Shown piece by piece: positions 10,700-18,011 of a DNA stretch of 48,398 nt; position 1 is the stretch's first letter; the number at the start of each line of letters is the position of its first letter. Below the pieces are notes generated by a model. It was given only the letters and a program-made list of their open reading frames with translations. It searched no databases and was not told where the DNA came from. The translations under genes were made by a program, and so were the position numbers. Source of the DNA: Candidatus Yanofskybacteria bacterium (GTDB lineage Bacteria; Patescibacteriota; Minisyncoccia; 2-02-FULL-40-12; GWA2-44-9); contig JACOZW010000023.1 in NCBI GenBank assembly GCA_016181145.1, positions 1 through 48,398 of the forward strand, in the 5' to 3' direction.

Positions 10700-11950
10700 T
10701 TAGAGCCGATTTTTGATATCTGACAATGCCACTAATTCGAGCTCTTTTTTATTGCGATGTTTAAGTTCGACACTGTCTTTTTCGAGAGTTTTCTTGCTGA
10801 CCACCAGACGGATTGGGCATCCGATTAGATCGGCATCGGCGAACTTTTCACCCGGAGCTTTGTCTTCACGATCGTCGTATAAAACTTCGACATTATTTTT
10901 GATTAAATCTTCATAAATCTTATTTGCGTAATTCGTAATTCGTAATTCGCTATTCTGTTCATTTAATGTAATTAAATGAACACGGAAAGGAGCGATGTTC
11001 TCCGGCCAAATAATTCCCTTGTCATCACTGGATACTTCTACAACTGTTGCCATAATCCTGCCTAAACCTATCCCGTAAGCACCCATGATCACCGGTTTTT
11101 TATCCCCCCCCTCATCTGTAAAATAGAGCCCTAAAGCTTCAGAATATTTTGTTCCCTGATCAAATATATTGCCGACTTCAATCGATTTCTTTTCTACCAA
11201 ATCTTCTTTCTTCCAACCGAGATGTTTTAATCCCCTTTCATCAAAAACTTCTTTATTGATAGCCTCATTTTTATCTTCATTAACATATATGGTGTCTTCT
11301 CCGACATCGGCCACAACCTGAAATTCATGAGTAAATTTATCTGTAAAAATTCCGCCTGCTGCCAGCGTATACACAGCCTTGAGCCCACAACGATTAAAAA
11401 TTTTTAGATAAGCATTTTTCGCCTTTTCATAATACTCATTAAGGCTTTCCTGGCTGGCATGAAAACTGTAAAGATCTTTCATCATAAATTCCCTTCCCCG
11501 TAAAAGTCCCGACTTGGCTCTTGCTTCATGTCTAAACTTAGTCTGGATCTGATAGGCAGAAAATGGCAGGTCCTTATAGGAGCTTATGTATCTGGCTGAG
11601 ATAGCAGTTAGAACTTCTTCGTGCGACCAACCCATAACAAAACTGGCTTCCTCCTCTCCTAGGCCTTTAGCAAAATACCCGACATCTAAGTTCCATCGTC
11701 CAGTCGGTTCCATATATTTCTTTTCAACTAGCGCTGACATAAATAACTCTTGCCCGCCAATAGCATTAATTTCTTCACGAATAACATTGGCTATCTTACT
11801 AAGAACACGCCATCCTAGCGGCAAGTAAGAATATATTCCGGCTGAATTTTTAAAAACAAAACCGCCCCGAATTAACAGCTGGGCATTTATCGCTGTTTCA
11901 TCCGTCGGCGCTTCTCTTAAGGTTTTAGTAAATAATTGAGAAAATTTCAT
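10700..11950 (-). CDS. proS: prolyl-tRNA synthetase (short form, no editing insertion)
   Basis: FRHEARAKSGLLRGREFMMKDLYSF (motif 2), GAYGIGLGRIMA (motif 3) and a C-terminal anticodon-binding domain. Confidence 0.9.
   Translation of the reverse strand: MKFSQLFTKTLREAPTDETAINAQLLIRGGFVFKNSAGIYSYLPLGWRVLSKIANVIREEINAIGGQELFMSALVEKKYMEPTGRWNLDVGYFAKGLGEEEASFVMGWSHEEVLTAISARYISSYKDLPFSAYQIQTKFRHEARAKSGLLRGREFMMKDLYSFHASQESLNEYYEKAKNAYLKIFNRCGLKAVYTLAAGGIFTDKFTHEFQVVADVGEDTIYVNEDKNEAINKEVFDERGLKHLGWKKEDLVEKKSIEVGNIFDQGTKYSEALGLYFTDEGGDKKPVIMGAYGIGLGRIMATVVEVSSDDKGIIWPENIAPFRVHLITLNEQNSELRITNYANKIYEDLIKNNVEVLYDDREDKAPGEKFADADLIGCPIRLVVSKKTLEKDSVELKHRNKKELELVALSDIKNRL
10928..10948. repeat. (GTAATTC)x3 heptamer microsatellite inside proS
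   Basis: Three perfect tandem heptamers, 21 nt and in frame, encoding ELRITNY. Confidence 0.9.
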
Positions 11951-11977: not shown

Positions 11978-13069
11978 TCACACCGTGAAAAACTTCGTTA
12001 TATCCTTAATTGTTACATAAATCATCAAACCGACCAAGAGAGCGAAACCGATTCCGTTGACTGCCGCCTCTATTTTTTTATCCAATGGCCTGCCCCTTAA
12101 TTTCTCGGCAACAATAAAAACCGCTCTTCCGCCATCCAGTGCCGGGAAAGGAAGAATATTCAAGACAGCCAGATTGATCGATATAAGGGCCACAAATTGC
12201 ATTAGGTAGCTGAAACCGACCCTGGCCGCCTGTCCGGTAATACCGGCGATACCGATAGGACCGGATACCTCACCAATCAGCCTGCCATCGATAAAAAGAG
12301 TTTTAATCAGTGAATAATATCCATACATAGTGTTATAAGTCAGTATTGCCGTATCATTGACTCCTCGCCAAATTGCCTCATACCAAGGATAGGAAACAAC
12401 TCCGGTAAGCGCCATGACTATGCCAATACTGCCTTCACCAGGCGGAGGGTTAAGTCTTGTTTCTACCTCTTTAGTGACCAGGCCATTGCCATGCCTTAAA
12501 ATCACGCCCAGCTTCTCGCCAACATGTTCTGAAGTAAATTTCTGCACTTCTTCGGTAGTAGTAACATACTGGATAGCACCGCCGGCCGACTGAAGCCCCA
12601 CTATTTCGTCGAGTATCTGCAGCCCGGCACGCTCGGCCGGACTTTCGGGAGCCACTTGAAGAATCTGGACTTTTTTGTCGCGAGCAGTAGCAATCATCTC
12701 TTCATCAAACAAACCTATTCTTAAGCCGAAAAAATTACCCGAAACCAGGAGCAACACCGCAAAAATGAGATTCATCACTACTCCTGCGACAACTACTTTG
12801 AGTCTGGCAGAAATTGATTTTGAACCAAAACTCCCCAGCTTATCAAGCTGGCCGCCATCTTCGCCGAGTATTCTAACGAACCCTCCAAAAGGTATCCAGT
12901 TTATGGAATAGATGGTTTCCCCCTTTTTTATGCCAAATAGGCGCGGTGGAAATCCAAATCCGAACTCCTCGACTTTCATCCCGGCACGGCGCGCCATAAC
13001 AAAATGCCCCCATTCATGAACGAGAACCAAAACTCCTATAACAGCAATAAAAATTAAACCGGTAATCAA
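11978..13069 (-). CDS. rseP: site-2 (M50) intramembrane zinc metalloprotease, RseP-like
   Basis: HEWGHF (HExxH) in TM1, a central PDZ-like segment, and NILPFPALDGG (the LDG motif). Confidence 0.85.
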   Translation of the reverse strand: MITGLIFIAVIGVLVLVHEWGHFVMARRAGMKVEEFGFGFPPRLFGIKKGETIYSINWIPFGGFVRILGEDGGQLDKLGSFGSKSISARLKVVVAGVVMNLIFAVLLLVSGNFFGLRIGLFDEEMIATARDKKVQILQVAPESPAERAGLQILDEIVGLQSAGGAIQYVTTTEEVQKFTSEHVGEKLGVILRHGNGLVTKEVETRLNPPPGEGSIGIVMALTGVVSYPWYEAIWRGVNDTAILTYNTMYGYYSLIKTLFIDGRLIGEVSGPIGIAGITGQAARVGFSYLMQFVALISINLAVLNILPFPALDGGRAVFIVAEKLRGRPLDKKIEAAVNGIGFALLVGLMIYVTIKDITKFFTV

Positions 13070-13099
13070 TTGAGTTTATAAAGTTCCGAGTTAATAAAG

Positions 13100-13444
13100 T
13101 TATAAAGTTTTTATTAATCCGGAAATTAATTTAGATATTTCGGAACATAGGAATTGAATATTATTAAAGTCTTTGTCATCGATATAGCCTAACTTAACCG
13201 CTAAGTAAGACATTGATCTTACTTCACCACAAGAACCTTTTGCAATAAATAAGAAATGCTTGAATTCATTATTACTCTTTCTTTCAAAGCCTTCAGCAAT
13301 ATTGTTACCTATACTAACTGAGGCTCTTTGTATTTGATCTCTAAAACCAAAGTCTTTATTGGATTTGAATAATTTATATATTAATAATGTAAGCTCTCCT
13401 GATTTTTGCCACGATATAATTTCCTCAAAACTATTTATTTTCAT
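13100..13444 (-). CDS. four-helix-bundle protein (23S rRNA intervening-sequence protein family)
   Basis: 114 aa with WQKS...L...IY, QIQRASVSIGNNIAEGFER and GSCGEVRS, the characteristic pattern of this family. Confidence 0.8.
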   Translation of the reverse strand: MKINSFEEIISWQKSGELTLLIYKLFKSNKDFGFRDQIQRASVSIGNNIAEGFERKSNNEFKHFLFIAKGSCGEVRSMSYLAVKLGYIDDKDFNNIQFLCSEISKLISGLIKTL

Positions 13445-13483
13445 TTTAACTTTATAAACTTTAAAAACTTGATGAACTTTTAA

Positions 13484-14074
13484 CTAGAGCATCAGTTCCT
13501 GTTCTTTCTTTTTAATCAACTCATCAAATTTTTTATTTGAATCGTCCATTATTTTCTGTAAGTCATCTTTGGCTTTGCGCATATCATCTTCTCTGGCCGT
13601 TTTGGCCCGAACCTCCGCCTGAACTTTCTTAATAATATCCTCTCTTATCTGCCTGGTTTTGATCCGGGCTTCTTCAACTTTATTGTGCAACAGGCGGATA
13701 AATTCCCTGCGCCTTTCTTCGCTAAGAGGGGGAAGGTTTATGCGAATACCCATATTATCAGATACCGGACTCAAGCCATGAGCGCTGTCTCTTATACCCT
13801 TTTCTATGAAAGGAATGGCGGATTTATCCCATGGCTGTATCATTAAGGACCTTGGCTCAGGTGCTGTAATAGTGGCTAATTCCTTTATCTTCACCCTGGA
13901 ACCCATGTAATCTATCTGAATATCTTCAACCAAGGATGAATGGGCTCTACCTGTTCTTATAGAAGCAACATCGCCTCTTGCCCGCTCAAAAGCGGCATCG
14001 AAATCACCTTTCCGCTGATTGATTAAGTCTTTGTACATCTTATCCATAATATAATATCTAGAAAACAAATTCAA
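13484..14074 (-). CDS. frr: ribosome recycling factor
   Basis: RTGRAHSSLVEDIQIDYMGS...LATITAPEPRSLMIQPWD pattern. The true start is probably the Met at 14047. Confidence 0.9.
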   Translation of the reverse strand: MNLFSRYYIMDKMYKDLINQRKGDFDAAFERARGDVASIRTGRAHSSLVEDIQIDYMGSRVKIKELATITAPEPRSLMIQPWDKSAIPFIEKGIRDSAHGLSPVSDNMGIRINLPPLSEERRREFIRLLHNKVEEARIKTRQIREDIIKKVQAEVRAKTAREDDMRKAKDDLQKIMDDSNKKFDELIKKKEQELML

Positions 14075-14144
14075 TTGAAAAAGCGTGTGGAATTTTAATT
14101 GCTCAGATTTCTAAAATAGATACTTATTTGGTAATATAAAGGCA

Positions 14145-15014
14145 ATGACTATTTACGGTCTTGGAATTATAGCAGCTTTCGGAGCGTTAATTTTTTGGGG
14201 AGTTGGGGATTTTCTGATTCAAAGATCTGTTCGTCGACTTGGCGACTGGGAACCTCTTTTTATCATCTCTCTCTTCGGCTCAATAATTATAACTCCTTTT
14301 GTATGGCATGATCTCCAGATTATTACTACTTCTGGTAATTTTATCCTATTAATCACAGTCGCGGTAACTTTTCTATGCGCCTCGCTTCTTGAATTTCAAG
14401 GATATAAAATCGGTAAGTTGGCGGTTATAGAGCCAATCCAAGTACTAGAAATACCAATTAGCGCCTTCCTAGCTTTTTTCTTATTATATGAGAGGCCAAC
14501 AAGTATGGTAATTCTACTTGTTCTAATCCTAATATTCGGCCTTGTTCTGATATCAGTCAAACGTCATCATTTTTTAAAAAAGTCTTGGCTGGAAAAAGGG
14601 ATCATATTTGCTATTGCTGCGTCATTTTTCATGGGTATTACTAACTTCCTAGTCGCTTATTCTTCTCGACTCACAAACCCGCTTATCGCAATTTGGTTTT
14701 TCAATATTTTTATTACATTGACCACCTTTATCTATCTCACTGCAATGGGTAAGATTCATAACTTATTTAAAGATTTTACCTCTAATCCAAAACTGATGAC
14801 CGCGGTCTGCGTTTTTGATAATTTAGCTTGGATCTCATTTGCATTTGCCTCAAGCGTAGTGCCGGTTATAACTGCACTTGCTATATCCGAAAGCTATATT
14901 GTATTAGCATCAATCCTAGGAATTTTCTACAACAATGAACGTCTTGCGCGCTATCAAATCGCAGGTCTTTTTATTGTCATTCCTAATGCTATAATTTTAG
15001 CAATCATAGCTTGA
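14145..15014 (+). CDS. EamA/DMT-family transporter
   Basis: 289 aa with about 10 hydrophobic segments in two similar halves, typical of drug/metabolite transporters. Confidence 0.7.
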   Translation: MTIYGLGIIAAFGALIFWGVGDFLIQRSVRRLGDWEPLFIISLFGSIIITPFVWHDLQIITTSGNFILLITVAVTFLCASLLEFQGYKIGKLAVIEPIQVLEIPISAFLAFFLLYERPTSMVILLVLILIFGLVLISVKRHHFLKKSWLEKGIIFAIAASFFMGITNFLVAYSSRLTNPLIAIWFFNIFITLTTFIYLTAMGKIHNLFKDFTSNPKLMTAVCVFDNLAWISFAFASSVVPVITALAISESYIVLASILGIFYNNERLARYQIAGLFIVIPNAIILAIIA

Positions 15015-15031
15015 TACTGTAGCCACAAAGC

Positions 15032-15060
15032 TTGACATATTATGGTTTATGGCTTATCAT
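15032..15060 (+). promoter_or_regulatory. sigma70-type promoter of ligase sub-operon 1
   Basis: TTGACA (15032-15037), 17-nt spacer, TATCAT (15055-15060). The ATG of the small ORF lies only 10 nt after the -10 box. Confidence 0.5.
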
Positions 15061-15069
15061 TGAGAAAAC

Positions 15070-15141
15070 ATGAATTTAAGACTTATAAATACAAATTGGC
15101 ATTATCACTCAACATTCTCTCGTGAAAGAGGGTTGAGTTAA
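15070..15141 (+). CDS. 23-codon aromatic-rich small ORF (MNLRLINTNWHYHSTFSRERGLS): leader peptide or precursor peptide
   Basis: Not in the ORF track. It is paralogous to the small ORF at 17052-17126, with synonymous differences at conserved residues. It would be near-leaderless and no SD is present. Confidence 0.4.
   Translation: MNLRLINTNWHYHSTFSRERGLS
15108..15137 (+). promoter_or_regulatory. hairpin 1 of a putative attenuator
   Basis: CTCAAC-a-TTCTCT [CGTGAA] AGAGGG-TTGAG. It starts at the last aromatic codon of the small ORF and ends 1 nt before its stop codon. Confidence 0.4.
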
Positions 15142-15173
15142 TGTCTCTATTTTCCAATTTTTGACATAAATTT

Positions 15174-15200
15174 AGCCCCCTCTCACGAGGGGGCTTCTTG
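15174..15200 (+). terminator. terminator-like hairpin upstream of ligase 1
   Basis: AGCCCCCTC-TCAC-GAGGGGGCT (9 bp) followed by TCTTGTTG. Its 5' arm CCCTCT can alternatively pair with AGAGGG of hairpin 1. Confidence 0.5.
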
Positions 15201-15239
15201 TTGCTCAAGAGGCTTAGTTCTTTTAACAGGGAGGTGTAG

Positions 15240-16157
15240 GTGGAAAGATTAGTTCGTTATTTCACGGAAGGGATAGAAAATCGACCCATTGCCAATACTA
15301 TAGGAGTAGAGGTTGAAACTTCGTTTATGATGGAACATGAGAATGGCAGTCCAATTACTGTCGCTCAATCTCAACTATTGATAGAAAGATTCCGTAGAGT
15401 TAAAGATTGGCGAATAACTAAAACGAAAGGAAATCTGATAGCAGAAATATCAGACGGCGCAAATAAACTATCTTACGAATTGGGTCGACAGAATCTCGAG
15501 CTTTCAATAGCGCCTGATACAAATAGTGCGGTGGCTGTTTCAAGGGCGATGAAACTTGCGGATGAACTAGGATCTGTTGCAAGTTATGTCTCCGATCCAG
15601 ATGCCCGCTTTTTATGGGAGGTGAGCGAACCGATAATTCATACTAATGAGGATCTACTTATGATTCCGGATGAACGAGATGCAACATGGCTTGAGCTTGA
15701 TGGCCGCCCCGCGCTAGAACTTCTTGCAAGGACATCGGCAGTTCAATTCACTATTTCCGTATCGCTGAAAGATGCAATCGAGTGTTTAAACAGATTAGGA
15801 GAAAAGATAGGATCGTTTCTAAAGGATTATCCACAAGAAGAAAATTGGCGGAGGTATATCAAAGAATCAAAAGCCGACTATCACGCGATGCGATATGGCG
15901 GCCCATTATTTTTCGATAGTATTGAAGATTATTGTAAAAAATTAATTAAGCACAATGTCGTCGTAGGCCCAGAACTCGTTCCCTATAATCAAGTGCGCGA
16001 TCTAGATATCCCTCTTTATCTGCGTTCTATCTGGTGGTATTTTCGCCTAAGACGCTACGAAAACACACTTTGCATAGAGGTTAGACCGTTGCCACGGCGC
16101 GATAGTAGAAAATTCAAAGAGCAATTTGATTTTGTAATGAATATCATGCAAAGCTAG
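15240..16157 (+). CDS. glutamate-cysteine-ligase family 2-like carboxylate-amine ligase, paralog 1 (divergent metal motif)
   Basis: GTG start 5 nt after GGGAGG. Motifs IGVEVETSF, ELGRQNLELSIAP and LCIEVRPLP are in family order. TSAVQFTIS replaces the GxHxH motif. Confidence 0.65.
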   Translation: MERLVRYFTEGIENRPIANTIGVEVETSFMMEHENGSPITVAQSQLLIERFRRVKDWRITKTKGNLIAEISDGANKLSYELGRQNLELSIAPDTNSAVAVSRAMKLADELGSVASYVSDPDARFLWEVSEPIIHTNEDLLMIPDERDATWLELDGRPALELLARTSAVQFTISVSLKDAIECLNRLGEKIGSFLKDYPQEENWRRYIKESKADYHAMRYGGPLFFDSIEDYCKKLIKHNVVVGPELVPYNQVRDLDIPLYLRSIWWYFRLRRYENTLCIEVRPLPRRDSRKFKEQFDFVMNIMQS

Positions 16158-16167
16158 AACACGCCAC

Positions 16168-16194
16168 GGGGAGATTCCCTTCTCCCCTCTTTTC
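16168..16194 (+). terminator. terminator/partial terminator between ligase 1 and the amidotransferase gene
   Basis: GGGGAGA-TTCCCT-TCTCCCC followed by TCTTTT. Confidence 0.55.
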
Positions 16195-16245
16195 TAAAGT
16201 AATTTTAATGTATAAGATTACTTTAGAGAGGTTTAATAATCACAT

Positions 16246-17016
16246 ATGAAAAACAAAAACATAAAAATCCTTTTTCTCGATATCTTCACTGACAACGAAA
16301 AGTTCAGAAAAGAGCTTGAGAAAAAAGTTTATAACGGACGAAGTTTATCTGAGCATGTCAGAAAAGTTTTTGGATTGGATAAAAACCAATGGCTAACCCT
16401 AGATGCCTCTAAAGATATTTTTCCCGATAAATTTCTTAATGTTGATGCAGTAGTAATAAGCGGTTCATCTAAAGATCCGGTAAAGGGACAGGAGAAGAAA
16501 TGGATGCGCGATACTTATAAATTTATAAGAAAAGCGATTAAAAAAGATCTTCCTATTCTTGGTATTTGCGGAGGGTTGCAGTTTACAGTTAGGGCTTTAG
16601 GCGGAGAAATAATTTATAATCCTAACGGCAAAGAATTCGGGGCTATAACGGTAACTATCAAAAAATCTGACCCCCTATTCAATGGCTTGAAGAAAAATTT
16701 TATCATCCCATCAAATCACCAATGTATGGTCGGTAAATTTAATTCCAGCGCTAAGCTGTTGGCCAGCTCTAAAATGTGCTCGGTTCAAGCTCTAGCAATC
16801 GGCGACAAAATAAGATTAGTCCAATTCCACCCCGAAAGAACTAAAGAGCAGAATATGATTTTAGCAAAAATGTCTAAAGAGAATTTGGTCAGAGATGGAA
16901 TTATAAAAAACGAAAAAGAATATCCGAAATTTTTAGAATCCCTAAAAACCGATATGGGCGCCGGCAAAGTAATAATCAAAAATTTTCTGGATAACTTTGT
17001 TTACAAAATGAATTGA
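16246..17016 (+). CDS. class-I glutamine amidotransferase-like / gamma-glutamyl hydrolase-like protein
   Basis: Nucleophile elbow PILGICGGLQF and the His-Glu pair in VQFHPE. Confidence 0.8.
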   Translation: MKNKNIKILFLDIFTDNEKFRKELEKKVYNGRSLSEHVRKVFGLDKNQWLTLDASKDIFPDKFLNVDAVVISGSSKDPVKGQEKKWMRDTYKFIRKAIKKDLPILGICGGLQFTVRALGGEIIYNPNGKEFGAITVTIKKSDPLFNGLKKNFIIPSNHQCMVGKFNSSAKLLASSKMCSVQALAIGDKIRLVQFHPERTKEQNMILAKMSKENLVRDGIIKNEKEYPKFLESLKTDMGAGKVIIKNFLDNFVYKMN

Positions 17017-17041
17017 CTCATAAATTCAAAGGTGCTATAAT
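17013..17041 (+). promoter_or_regulatory. sigma70-type promoter of ligase sub-operon 2
   Basis: TTGACT (17013-17018, overlapping the preceding TGA stop), 17-nt spacer, TATAAT (17036-17041) with TGc upstream. An ATG follows 11 nt later. Confidence 0.55.
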
Positions 17042-17051
17042 TCACATAACA

Positions 17052-17126
17052 ATGAATAATTTATACAAAAACACTAATTTTTATTGGTTTACATATAACC
17101 TCTCTCGGGGAAGGTGTTTTTGTTAG
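17052..17126 (+). CDS. 24-codon aromatic-rich small ORF (MNNLYKNTNFYWFTYNLSRGRCFC): paralog of 15070-15141
   Basis: Not in the ORF track. It shares MN, NTN at codons 7-9, an aromatic block at codons 10-15 and SRxR with the first small ORF. It has the same promoter-to-ATG geometry. Confidence 0.4.
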   Translation: MNNLYKNTNFYWFTYNLSRGRCFC

Positions 17127-17152
17127 GCTAAACTCTCAGTAGCTAGCGACAT

Positions 17153-17180
17153 AAAAACCTCTTCCTCGGAAGAGGTTTTT
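17153..17180 (+). terminator. terminator-like hairpin upstream of ligase 2
   Basis: AAAAACCTCTTCC-TC-GGAAGAGGTTTTT, a 13-bp stem with a T5 tail abutting ATG 17181. Confidence 0.5.
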
Positions 17181-18011
17181 ATGTCTTCCGAACAGCTCTT
17201 TAACAAAAGGAGGGACGAGATGAAACCAGAAAATGAACTGAATTTATTTCTCGATAAAATCGTATTCAGGCCGGAAATGACCGGTTCAATAGGTATTGAA
17301 AGAGAACATTTTCTTGAAATCCATGCCGAAATTAATGATTGTCTGCCTTCTTTGTGTGTTCCTTACGCCGGATGGTTTTTAAGAAACATAAACGACGACA
17401 GGTGGACTTATGAATTATCGGCCTGCCAAGTTGAGTCAAGAACCAATCCCCAGATAGATCTTTCTGCTCTTAAGCTAGAACTCTATGAGAATCTGAATCT
17501 AAGTAATGCGACTGCGCAAAAAATGGGTATTTATCTGGTTAACCATGAAGTAGCAGATAGATTTATGCCGCTTGATGTCTATCCCGACCCGAGATATCTC
17601 GAAATCGTAAAGCGCATTTCCGAGGAAGAGCTGCGTGCAGCTTGTAGGGTAGCCGGAACCCATATTCACATCGGGGCCAGAGACATAAACCATGCAATTG
17701 CCATTAACAATTTACTTGCTCCGCGCATCGATGCTTTGTGCAGAATCAGCGACCACTCAAATGGAGAACGGCTCCATCTTTATAAAACAATGGCTAAAAA
17801 TTGGCAGCCGACCACATATGAAAGTCCGGAACATCTATTCGAGGTCGCAAAAACCGAAGGCTTTATCGATAATCCGAGAAACTGTTGGAAACTTATCAGA
17901 GTAAGCATTCACGGAACTATTGAATTAAGAATGTTTGGCGCGACCAATAGTATTGATGAAATATTGGAATGGGTTTCGTTTGTGAAATATCTCATCAAGG
18001 AGGCAATGTAA
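17181..18011 (+). CDS. glutamate-cysteine-ligase family 2-like carboxylate-amine ligase, paralog 2
   Basis: IGIEREHFL, ELSACQVESRTNP, AGTHIHIG and GTIELRMFG. The better start is probably ATG 17220, 5 nt after AAGGAGGG. Confidence 0.75.
   Translation: MSSEQLFNKRRDEMKPENELNLFLDKIVFRPEMTGSIGIEREHFLEIHAEINDCLPSLCVPYAGWFLRNINDDRWTYELSACQVESRTNPQIDLSALKLELYENLNLSNATAQKMGIYLVNHEVADRFMPLDVYPDPRYLEIVKRISEEELRAACRVAGTHIHIGARDINHAIAINNLLAPRIDALCRISDHSNGERLHLYKTMAKNWQPTTYESPEHLFEVAKTEGFIDNPRNCWKLIRVSIHGTIELRMFGATNSIDEILEWVSFVKYLIKEAM

Follow-up and report, generated by a model that had tools for sequence, protein, structure and literature searches.

A leader region ahead of a glutamate-cysteine-ligase-fold gene

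We analysed a 48,398-nt stretch of DNA (hereafter the window) from the genome of Candidatus Yanofskybacteria, a member of the Patescibacteria (candidate phyla radiation, CPR; assembly GCA_016181145.1, contig JACOZW010000023.1). The segment 15032-15239 lies directly upstream of a gene designated ligase 1, followed by a gene for a class-I glutamine amidotransferase, a pair conserved in the relatives examined, and then by two further GCS2/YbdK-like genes. The segment combines a promoter, a short leader open reading frame (ORF) and alternative RNA structures (Table 1), and is probably a ribosome-mediated transcription attenuator of the hisL/trpL kind that controls ligase 1 and the amidotransferase.

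The element was found directly upstream of a ligase-1 homologue in at least ~63 loci from many CPR lineages, by nhmmer and then by a covariance model, R1, built on the antiterminator; most of these loci (labelled L001 etc.) score 44-103 bits with R1. A leader core of ~100 nt is almost identical in relatives with only 65-84% protein identity, and the recurrence of the element before a homologous gene, with the compensatory changes described below, indicates more than chance. The upstream neighbour is not constant: L005 has RRF there and L002 an ABC transporter, both on the opposite strand, and other loci have hisR or different genes. The element therefore goes with ligase 1 and not with the EamA gene upstream of it in the window.

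Both the promoter and the 23-codon ORF described in an initial annotation of this DNA are present. With 11/12 matching positions, the promoter ranks first among the 8 promoter-like sites of 13000-17000, a region in which such sites are not enriched overall (8 observed against 12.6 expected). Transcription is predicted to start at ~15067, in agreement with the earlier placement about 3 nt before the ATG at 15070, leaving a 5′ untranslated region of 0-3 nt. The ATG sits 9 nt past the -10 box and has no Shine-Dalgarno (SD) sequence. The same -35/17/-10 layout, with the ATG 7-9 nt past the -10 box, is seen in the clade relatives L005, L068, L071, L072, L077 and L001.

Table 1 Coordinates of the features at the ligase 1 locus, in window positions.
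Feature	Position	Strand	Description
Sigma-70-type promoter	15032-15060	+	TTGACA 15032-15037, 17-nt spacer, TATCAT 15055-15060
Leaderless leader ORF	15070-15141	+	23 codons, MNLRLINTNWHYHSTFSRERGLS; TAA stop 15139-15141
Regulatory codons	15097-15108	+	TGG CAT TAT CAC (W-H-Y-H); align with the His-His-His positions of the family
P1, anti-antiterminator (1:2)	15098-15145	+	hairpin 1 (15108-15137) plus outer helix GGCAUUA/UAAUGUC
Region 2, antiterminator 5′ strand	15117-15145	+	P1 loop, P1 3′ arm and stop codon; in minimum-free-energy fold
Region 3, antiterminator 3′ strand	15163-15191	+	flank, 5′ arm and loop of terminator
Intrinsic terminator (3:4)	15174-15203	+	stem-loop 15174-15195 plus U-rich tail
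Hairpin 2 (4:5)	15191-15215	+	-12.7 kcal/mol
Pre-start region	15216-15242	+	AGTTCTTTTAA motif 15216-15226, SD GGGAGG 15229-15234, ligase 1 GTG 15240
Ligase 1	15240-16157	+	305 aa, glutamate-cysteine-ligase fold
Class-I glutamine amidotransferase	16246-17016	+	follows ligase 1
Second, paralogous attenuator	17013-17180	+	between amidotransferase and ligase 2
Promoter of second attenuator	17013-17041	+	TTGACT-17-TATAAT
Second leader ORF	17052-17126	+	MNNLYKNTNFYWFTYNLSRGRCFC, then stop
Second terminator	17153-17180	+	region 2 complementary in 15/16 positions, by eye

An in-frame ATG is present in 63 of 65 homologous leaders, L009 and L034 being the only two without one. SD-like sequences precede just 2 of the 63 leader ORFs, and a -10-like hexamer lies 3-12 nt upstream in 52 of them, most commonly at 6 nt; leaderless initiation therefore characterizes the family. 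The frame that contains the His codons is open in 54 of 64 loci, compared with 22 and 19 for the other two frames. The ORF takes two forms: in 33 loci, the window among them, it is short, with 17-52 codons (mostly 19-29), and in 29 loci it is a gene of ~104 codons. As in the trpL/hisL class of attenuators, the element thus carries a putatively translated leader ORF with a usable start.

An unusual variant of the short form occurs in L005 (4759-4827) and also in L006, L007 and L069, where a 69-nt GC-rich palindromic insertion (CCCGTACGAAGT...ACTTCGTACGGG) stands directly after the leader start ATGAAT; the ATGAAT is duplicated so as to flank it, and the rest of the leader is AT-rich. The L005 insertion preserves the frame and yields a 48-codon leader. 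Its interpretation as a repeated mobile element was rejected, as no other copy was found and it occupies a single site in the loci examined.

The product of ligase 1 has no Pfam match, and its named homologues all come from CPR lineages. Its profile weakly matches plant glutamate-cysteine ligase, and the AlphaFold model (pLDDT 93.5) has 2gwc as its best match in the Protein Data Bank (PDB; TM 0.74), followed by YbdK, which makes "ligase" a fair name. These matches place the protein at the level of its fold. Between the ligase 1 and amidotransferase genes, a terminator-like hairpin was observed at 16168-16187 (GGGGAGATTCCCTTCTCCCC and TCTTTTCT), so the two genes may not be strictly co-transcribed.

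Competing RNA structures and their covariation

The regulatory codons W-H-Y-H end where hairpin 1 begins, and the stop codon lies 1 nt past hairpin 1, as first described. The outer helix of P1 extends this hairpin by pairing the His/Tyr codons with the stop-codon region. Downstream, the 9-bp GC hairpin with a T-rich tail was recovered as a stem-loop of 9 pairs (7 G-C) with a 4-nt loop and the tail TCTTGTTG; in relatives the tails are of the GGGGGTTTT type. It has the form of an intrinsic terminator, a GC stem and U tract ahead of the structural gene, as attenuators of this class possess.

The initial annotation had pointed to complementarity between AGAGGG in the 3′ arm of hairpin 1 and CCCTCT in the 5′ arm of the terminator. 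This pairing is real and far longer than proposed, with regions 2 and 3 forming an antiterminator helix of ~24 bp that runs through the stop codon. In the comparison of alternative folds of 15067-15239, this helix is part of the minimum-free-energy structure (-48.7 kcal/mol, z = -3.9, with 0 of 200 shuffles as stable). Taken separately, the energies in the window are -13.3 kcal/mol for P1, -19.0 for the terminator and -32.9 for the antiterminator, so that P1 plus terminator and the antiterminator are nearly isoenergetic. Masking a ribosome footprint at W-H-Y-H gave the antiterminator fold, and masking it at the stop codon gave the terminator fold.

The structures were assessed on 41 leaders aligned with MAFFT independently of any structure, with slid strands as the control for pairing counts; alignment columns 36-60 correspond to 15121-15145, and two mismatch positions of the antiterminator helix were left out of the pair counts. 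In the antiterminator core, 86.5% of cells are paired, against 41-55% in slid controls, and 12 of 15 pairs changed on both sides, with 109 compensatory cells. The continuation through the stop codon is paired in 84.2% of cells (slid controls 28-48%), with covariation at 7 of 8 pairs, bringing the helix to 19 of 23 pairs with compensatory changes. Much of this covariation falls in segments that hairpin 1 and the terminator would leave as loops, where it is expected only if the two regions pair together. For the terminator, 92% of cells are paired and 7 of 11 pairs covary, while the outer helix of P1 (CAUCA:UGAUG) is 82% paired with little covariation.

Hairpin 1 behaved differently. As a single fixed-column helix it was rejected, its cells being paired in 60% of cases, no better than slid controls, and the fixed-column test was replaced by per-sequence energies. 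The P1 segments of the 41 leaders have a mean energy of -13.8 kcal/mol, against -7.9 with the 5′ half shuffled, a mean z of -2.4, and z < -1.64 in 30 of 41 leaders. Covariation, suggested at the outset as a check on all three pairings, hence holds for 2:3 and 3:4 and not for hairpin 1, which lacks a fixed register; the exclusive structures are seen by pairing and covariation for 2:3 and 3:4 and by per-sequence energies for 1:2. The mean energies across the family (P1 -13.8, terminator -19.0, antiterminator -21.7 kcal/mol) suggest that P1 plus terminator is the default state and that the antiterminator wins only if P1 is blocked. Both the ORF and the alternative pairing are conserved in homologous leaders, and the trp-type design originally put forward is borne out in its parts: a near-leaderless ORF, regulatory codons abutting hairpin 1, a stop codon immediately past that hairpin, and 1:2 plus 3:4 pairing against 2:3.

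Further elements lie between the terminator and ligase 1. Hairpin 2 re-uses the 3′ arm and U-tract of the terminator and is therefore compatible only with the antiterminated state. Analogues with different sequence were seen by eye in relatives; RNAalifold gave no consensus structure on a MAFFT alignment of the terminator-to-start region, so that hairpin 2 and the AGTTCTTTAA motif stand as by-eye observations. The columns of the AGTTCTTTTAA motif are at least 90% conserved across lineages, and in most loci the at least 90% conserved motif AGTTCTTTAA(A) stands just before the SD. Its UUCUUU could pair with the SD AAGGAG, and a comparable UCUUCC/CTCTTTAAC arrangement occurs at the second attenuator. 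Together, the motif and the hairpin past the terminator may provide a translational layer of control.

Searches with Rfam returned no family at gathering score in the window, including His_leader (RF00514), other leaders, T-boxes and riboswitches; the best sub-threshold leader match was Phe_leader, with 18.4 bits against a threshold of 55. Nothing in Rfam covered the element in 15 related loci, where the matches were tRNAs and one SAM riboswitch located elsewhere (RF00162, 51.3 bits, L057:1583-1683, upstream of the gene preceding the attenuator), indicating that classical riboswitches are also present in these CPR genomes. Among the papers searched, none described the element in Patescibacteria/CPR.

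Putative sensing codons and the link to HisR

The initial annotation had proposed control by the supply of charged aromatic or His tRNA. Among 61 distinct leaders, His occurs at the three aligned codons in 43, 48 and 38 leaders, and 54 of them contain two or more His codons. At the third position, 22 leaders use CAC and 16 use CAT. The codon preceding the His positions is variable in this set, with Trp there only in the window's own clade. Across the family, the three adjacent His codons abut or overlap the 5′ strand of P1, the clustering seen in attenuator leaders. The window's own cluster is weak, consisting of H-Y-H at 15100-15108, immediately 5′ of hairpin 1, with two His; its placement agrees with the fold obtained by masking a ribosome footprint there. 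Its clade shares the motif W-H-Y-(H/Y/N), in which Tyr is encoded synonymously by TAT or TAC.

A second line of evidence comes from the long form of the leader ORF. In 29 loci this ORF is itself a gene of the HisR/YerC repressor family, whose last ~13 codons (ending in LHHHNSIQSRRGLS before the stop) overlap P1. The encoded protein is a TrpR-like member of the YerC/YecD family (TIGR02531, 74 bits against a cut-off of 42) and matches PDB entries 3g1c, 3frw and 3kor (E = 1e-12 to 1e-13). YerC is another name for the histidine repressor HisR, whose published operator is cacTTTAnnnnnnTAAAgtg (PMC9413887). Sites of the form ACTTTA-N6-TAAAGT, with at most 2 mismatches, are present at 27 of the 29 hisR-like promoters, 12 of which have two tandem sites. 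The combination of gene and operator that defines the HisR regulon is thus found in these relatives. Among the 34 mini-ORF promoters only one, that of L027 and not that of the window, has an operator-like site, where shuffles predict ~0.26 per set. The HisR-type sites overlap the -35 and -10 boxes (for example L024:2530-2580, L061, L015 and L052), and the proximal operator mostly ends 6-7 nt ahead of the leaderless ATG.

Because conserved His codons and a HisR-type gene with its operators indicate the same amino acid independently, the predicted signal of the family is histidine. Of the initial proposal, the His part stands, and the aromatic part does not hold as a family signal. The link drawn from it between the ligase 1 pathway and aromatic amino acids is likewise not sustained, since the conserved codons are His and Trp is confined to the window's clade; family-wide, ligase 1 and the amidotransferase are, on the codon evidence, linked to histidine and not to aromatic amino acids. 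No hisR/YerC-like gene is present in the 48-kb window, which therefore falls outside the HisR regulon. The leader was ancestrally, it would seem, the 3′ tail of hisR, and the window's clade has lost hisR and retains the minimal leader.

A nearby histidyl-tRNA synthetase was considered and rejected. The class-II synthetase encoded at 10700-11950 on the minus strand, three genes upstream of the element, is ProRS (TIGR00409, 419 bits), giving no synthetase link to a His attenuator.

A paralogous attenuator lies between the amidotransferase and ligase 2. Model R1 matches the window at 17076-17185 (22.8 bits, E = 0.0046) and matches the equivalent position after the amidotransferase in at least a dozen loci. 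The second leader carries Tyr-Trp-Phe codons: the window reads F-Y-W-F, relatives conserve (F/S/A)-Y-W-F or Y-F-W-F, and the run (F/S/A)-Y-W-F is kept in ~11 further loci. For ligase 2 the most likely start is ATG 17220, preceded by the SD AAAGGAGGG, in place of 17181. A single instance of a third attenuator-like element was observed at L010:1985-2173 (31 bits with R1), where a short ORF ending in FIFGMEMAAPSWKWPA and a terminator AAACCCCTTTCACGGTGAAAGGGGTTTTT precede a gene for a 170-aa protein without Pfam or NCBIfam match.

In an alternative reading, the same attenuator would, within the window's clade, respond to aromatic aminoacyl-tRNA (Trp/Tyr) or to His and Tyr in combination, tying ligase 1 and the amidotransferase to aromatic amino acids. 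Trp and Tyr are retained in most of the clade members examined (exceptions L001, C-H-Y-H, and L002, W-H-H-Y), the Tyr codon changes synonymously, Tyr or Asn can take the place of the third His, and the paralogous leader in the same operon has Y-W-F. Leaders with mixed aromatic codons have precedent in aroR of C. glutamicum, as outlined in PMC11802643. Beyond the window's clade, however, the aligned codons read His-His-His, with no fixed residue at the Trp position. The leader's ancestral setting is a gene for a histidine repressor with HisR operators, and all the clade members examined share one of the His codons. The Tyr codon, moreover, may have arisen to preserve CAUUA:UAAUG pairing after the stop became UAA. 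We regard this alternative as unlikely, and the aromatic reading fits the second element better. For the window's W-H-Y-H variant, the sensed amino acid would be His alone or a His/Tyr mixture.

Proposed mechanism and comparison with known systems

The histidine attenuator would operate as follows. Transcription would start at or within ~3 nt of the AUG of the 23-codon ORF. A ribosome reading to the UAA would cover region 2, allowing the terminator stem-loop to form and transcription to stop; if no ribosome were loaded, P1 would form, followed by the terminator, and transcription would again stop. A ribosome stalled at the His (and here Tyr) codons 15100-15108, the putative signal, would mask the 5′ strand of P1. 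The freed region 2 would then pair with region 3 before the 3′ arm of the terminator is made, and with the antiterminator formed RNA polymerase would continue into ligase 1. Termination in vivo would accordingly be the default outcome in this model.

Several observations weigh against this proposal. His codons number only two in the window leader and are not adjacent; some relatives in its clade have one (W-H-Y-Y, W-H-Y-N). The His codons also contribute CAUCA to a pairing with UGAUG at the stop, and in the window's clade the change of CAU to UAU goes with that of UGA to UAA, preserving a CAUUA:UAAUG pairing, so that part of the codon conservation could be at the RNA level. L009:1-222 has no in-frame ATG, GTG or TTG past the upstream stop, hairpin 1 has no single conserved register across clades, and the application of sigma-70-like promoter rules to CPR is an assumption. 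There is also no evident reason why a carboxylate-amine ligase should be induced by histidine shortage. The L009 leader was observed to keep the conserved W-H-Y-H region and all RNA elements.

A second alternative is a translation-independent switch, in which a riboswitch or protein-bound RNA would select between antiterminator and terminator and the ORF would be incidental. Covariation of these two helices alone requires no ribosome, the nucleotides in the window's clade are more conserved than the proteins, and the His codons double as a helix strand. We nevertheless consider such a switch quite improbable. Very different lineages conserve the ORF together with its ATG and leaderless position; the three competing helices explain almost all conserved nucleotides, so that a conserved unpaired core is lacking; Rfam gives no riboswitch or T-box match; and the His codons are kept where a UAA stop breaks the UGAUG pairing (L031, L033, L018, L058). 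The remaining possibility, that there is no regulatory unit and that 15174-15200 is the terminator of the upstream EamA transporter gene, with the ORF and promoter as chance matches, could draw on the position of the hairpin downstream of that gene (which ends at 15014), on its symmetry, sufficient to score on both strands, and on the lack of enrichment of promoter-like hexamers, and is effectively refuted by the tracking of the element with ligase 1 across differing upstream neighbours, by its recurrence in at least ~63 loci and by a covarying helix that spans ORF and terminator.

With ribosome-mediated attenuation as the preferred reading, a broader picture may be advanced tentatively, as one that falls somewhat short of probable. 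The element could represent an undescribed, phylum-wide family of leaderless attenuators with a leader derived from the hisR tail, present in serial paralogous copies within a single operon (His-His-His at ligase 1 and the amidotransferase, Tyr-Trp-Phe at ligases 2 and 3). One part of the cluster would be wired to histidine twice, by HisR operators and by a His attenuator, and another part to aromatic amino acids. If the codons report the physiology of the enzymes, the cluster of GCL/YbdK-fold ligases (GCL, glutamate-cysteine ligase) would be an acquisition, salvage or conjugation system specific to certain amino acids, histidine and the aromatic ones. Patescibacteria are thought to depend on their hosts for amino acids, and the element offers a concrete clue to the function of a group-wide cluster composed of a GCL-fold ligase, an amidotransferase and further YbdK-like ligases.

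To our knowledge, almost nothing is known about gene regulation in CPR bacteria. The element implies that these reduced symbionts would couple transcription to translation, initiate on leaderless transcripts and sense tRNA charging. Its architecture is unusual in that a full-length repressor gene doubles as the leader ORF of an attenuator; the underlying mechanism is a textbook one, and to that extent the element is unsurprising.

The closest known counterparts are hisL (RF00514), trpL and pheL, with which the CPR element shares a short leader ORF, clustered regulatory codons just 5′ of region 1, mutually exclusive 1:2, 2:3 and 3:4 pairings and an intrinsic terminator before the first structural gene. 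As in hisL, His codons are the conserved signal. The hisL of E. coli has 7 His codons, whereas the CPR element has only 2-3 and has no sequence or structure match to RF00514. In contrast to all three leaders, the CPR ORF is leaderless and its stop codon lies within the antiterminator helix, and unlike those of hisL its targets, in Patescibacteria, are a GCL-fold ligase and an amidotransferase and not his biosynthesis.

For Firmicutes without HisR, Ashniev et al. (2022, PMC9413887) predicted His attenuators whose leader peptides have 3-5 consecutive His codons just before the attenuator, antiterminator and terminator hairpins. These share His leader peptides with the CPR family, and both are known from comparative genomics only. 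There, the attenuators replace HisR and precede his operons, whereas in CPR the attenuator occurs alongside HisR, is physically joined to the 3′ end of hisR in 29 loci and lies ahead of genes other than his genes. Relative to the HisR (YerC/YecD, TrpR family) regulon, the CPR sites ACTTTA-N6-TAAAGT match the published operator (PMC9413887), whereas the CPR proteins have an extra ~13-residue tail overlapping the attenuator RNA, and the window lacks both a hisR-like gene and an operator-like site at its leader promoter.

For mixed codons, the aroR leader upstream of aroF in Corynebacterium glutamicum carries a short mixed-aromatic run (Neshat et al. 2014, as summarized in PMC11802643), comparable to the second attenuator (F-Y-W-F) and to the W-H-Y-H variant. 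In that account aroR precedes an aromatic biosynthesis gene, unlike the window, where YbdK/GCS2-like ligases with no assigned substrate follow. What is new in the CPR family relative to these systems is that it is leaderless, has its stop inside the antiterminator, descends from a fusion to the 3′ end of hisR, targets non-biosynthetic ligases and is duplicated with different codons.

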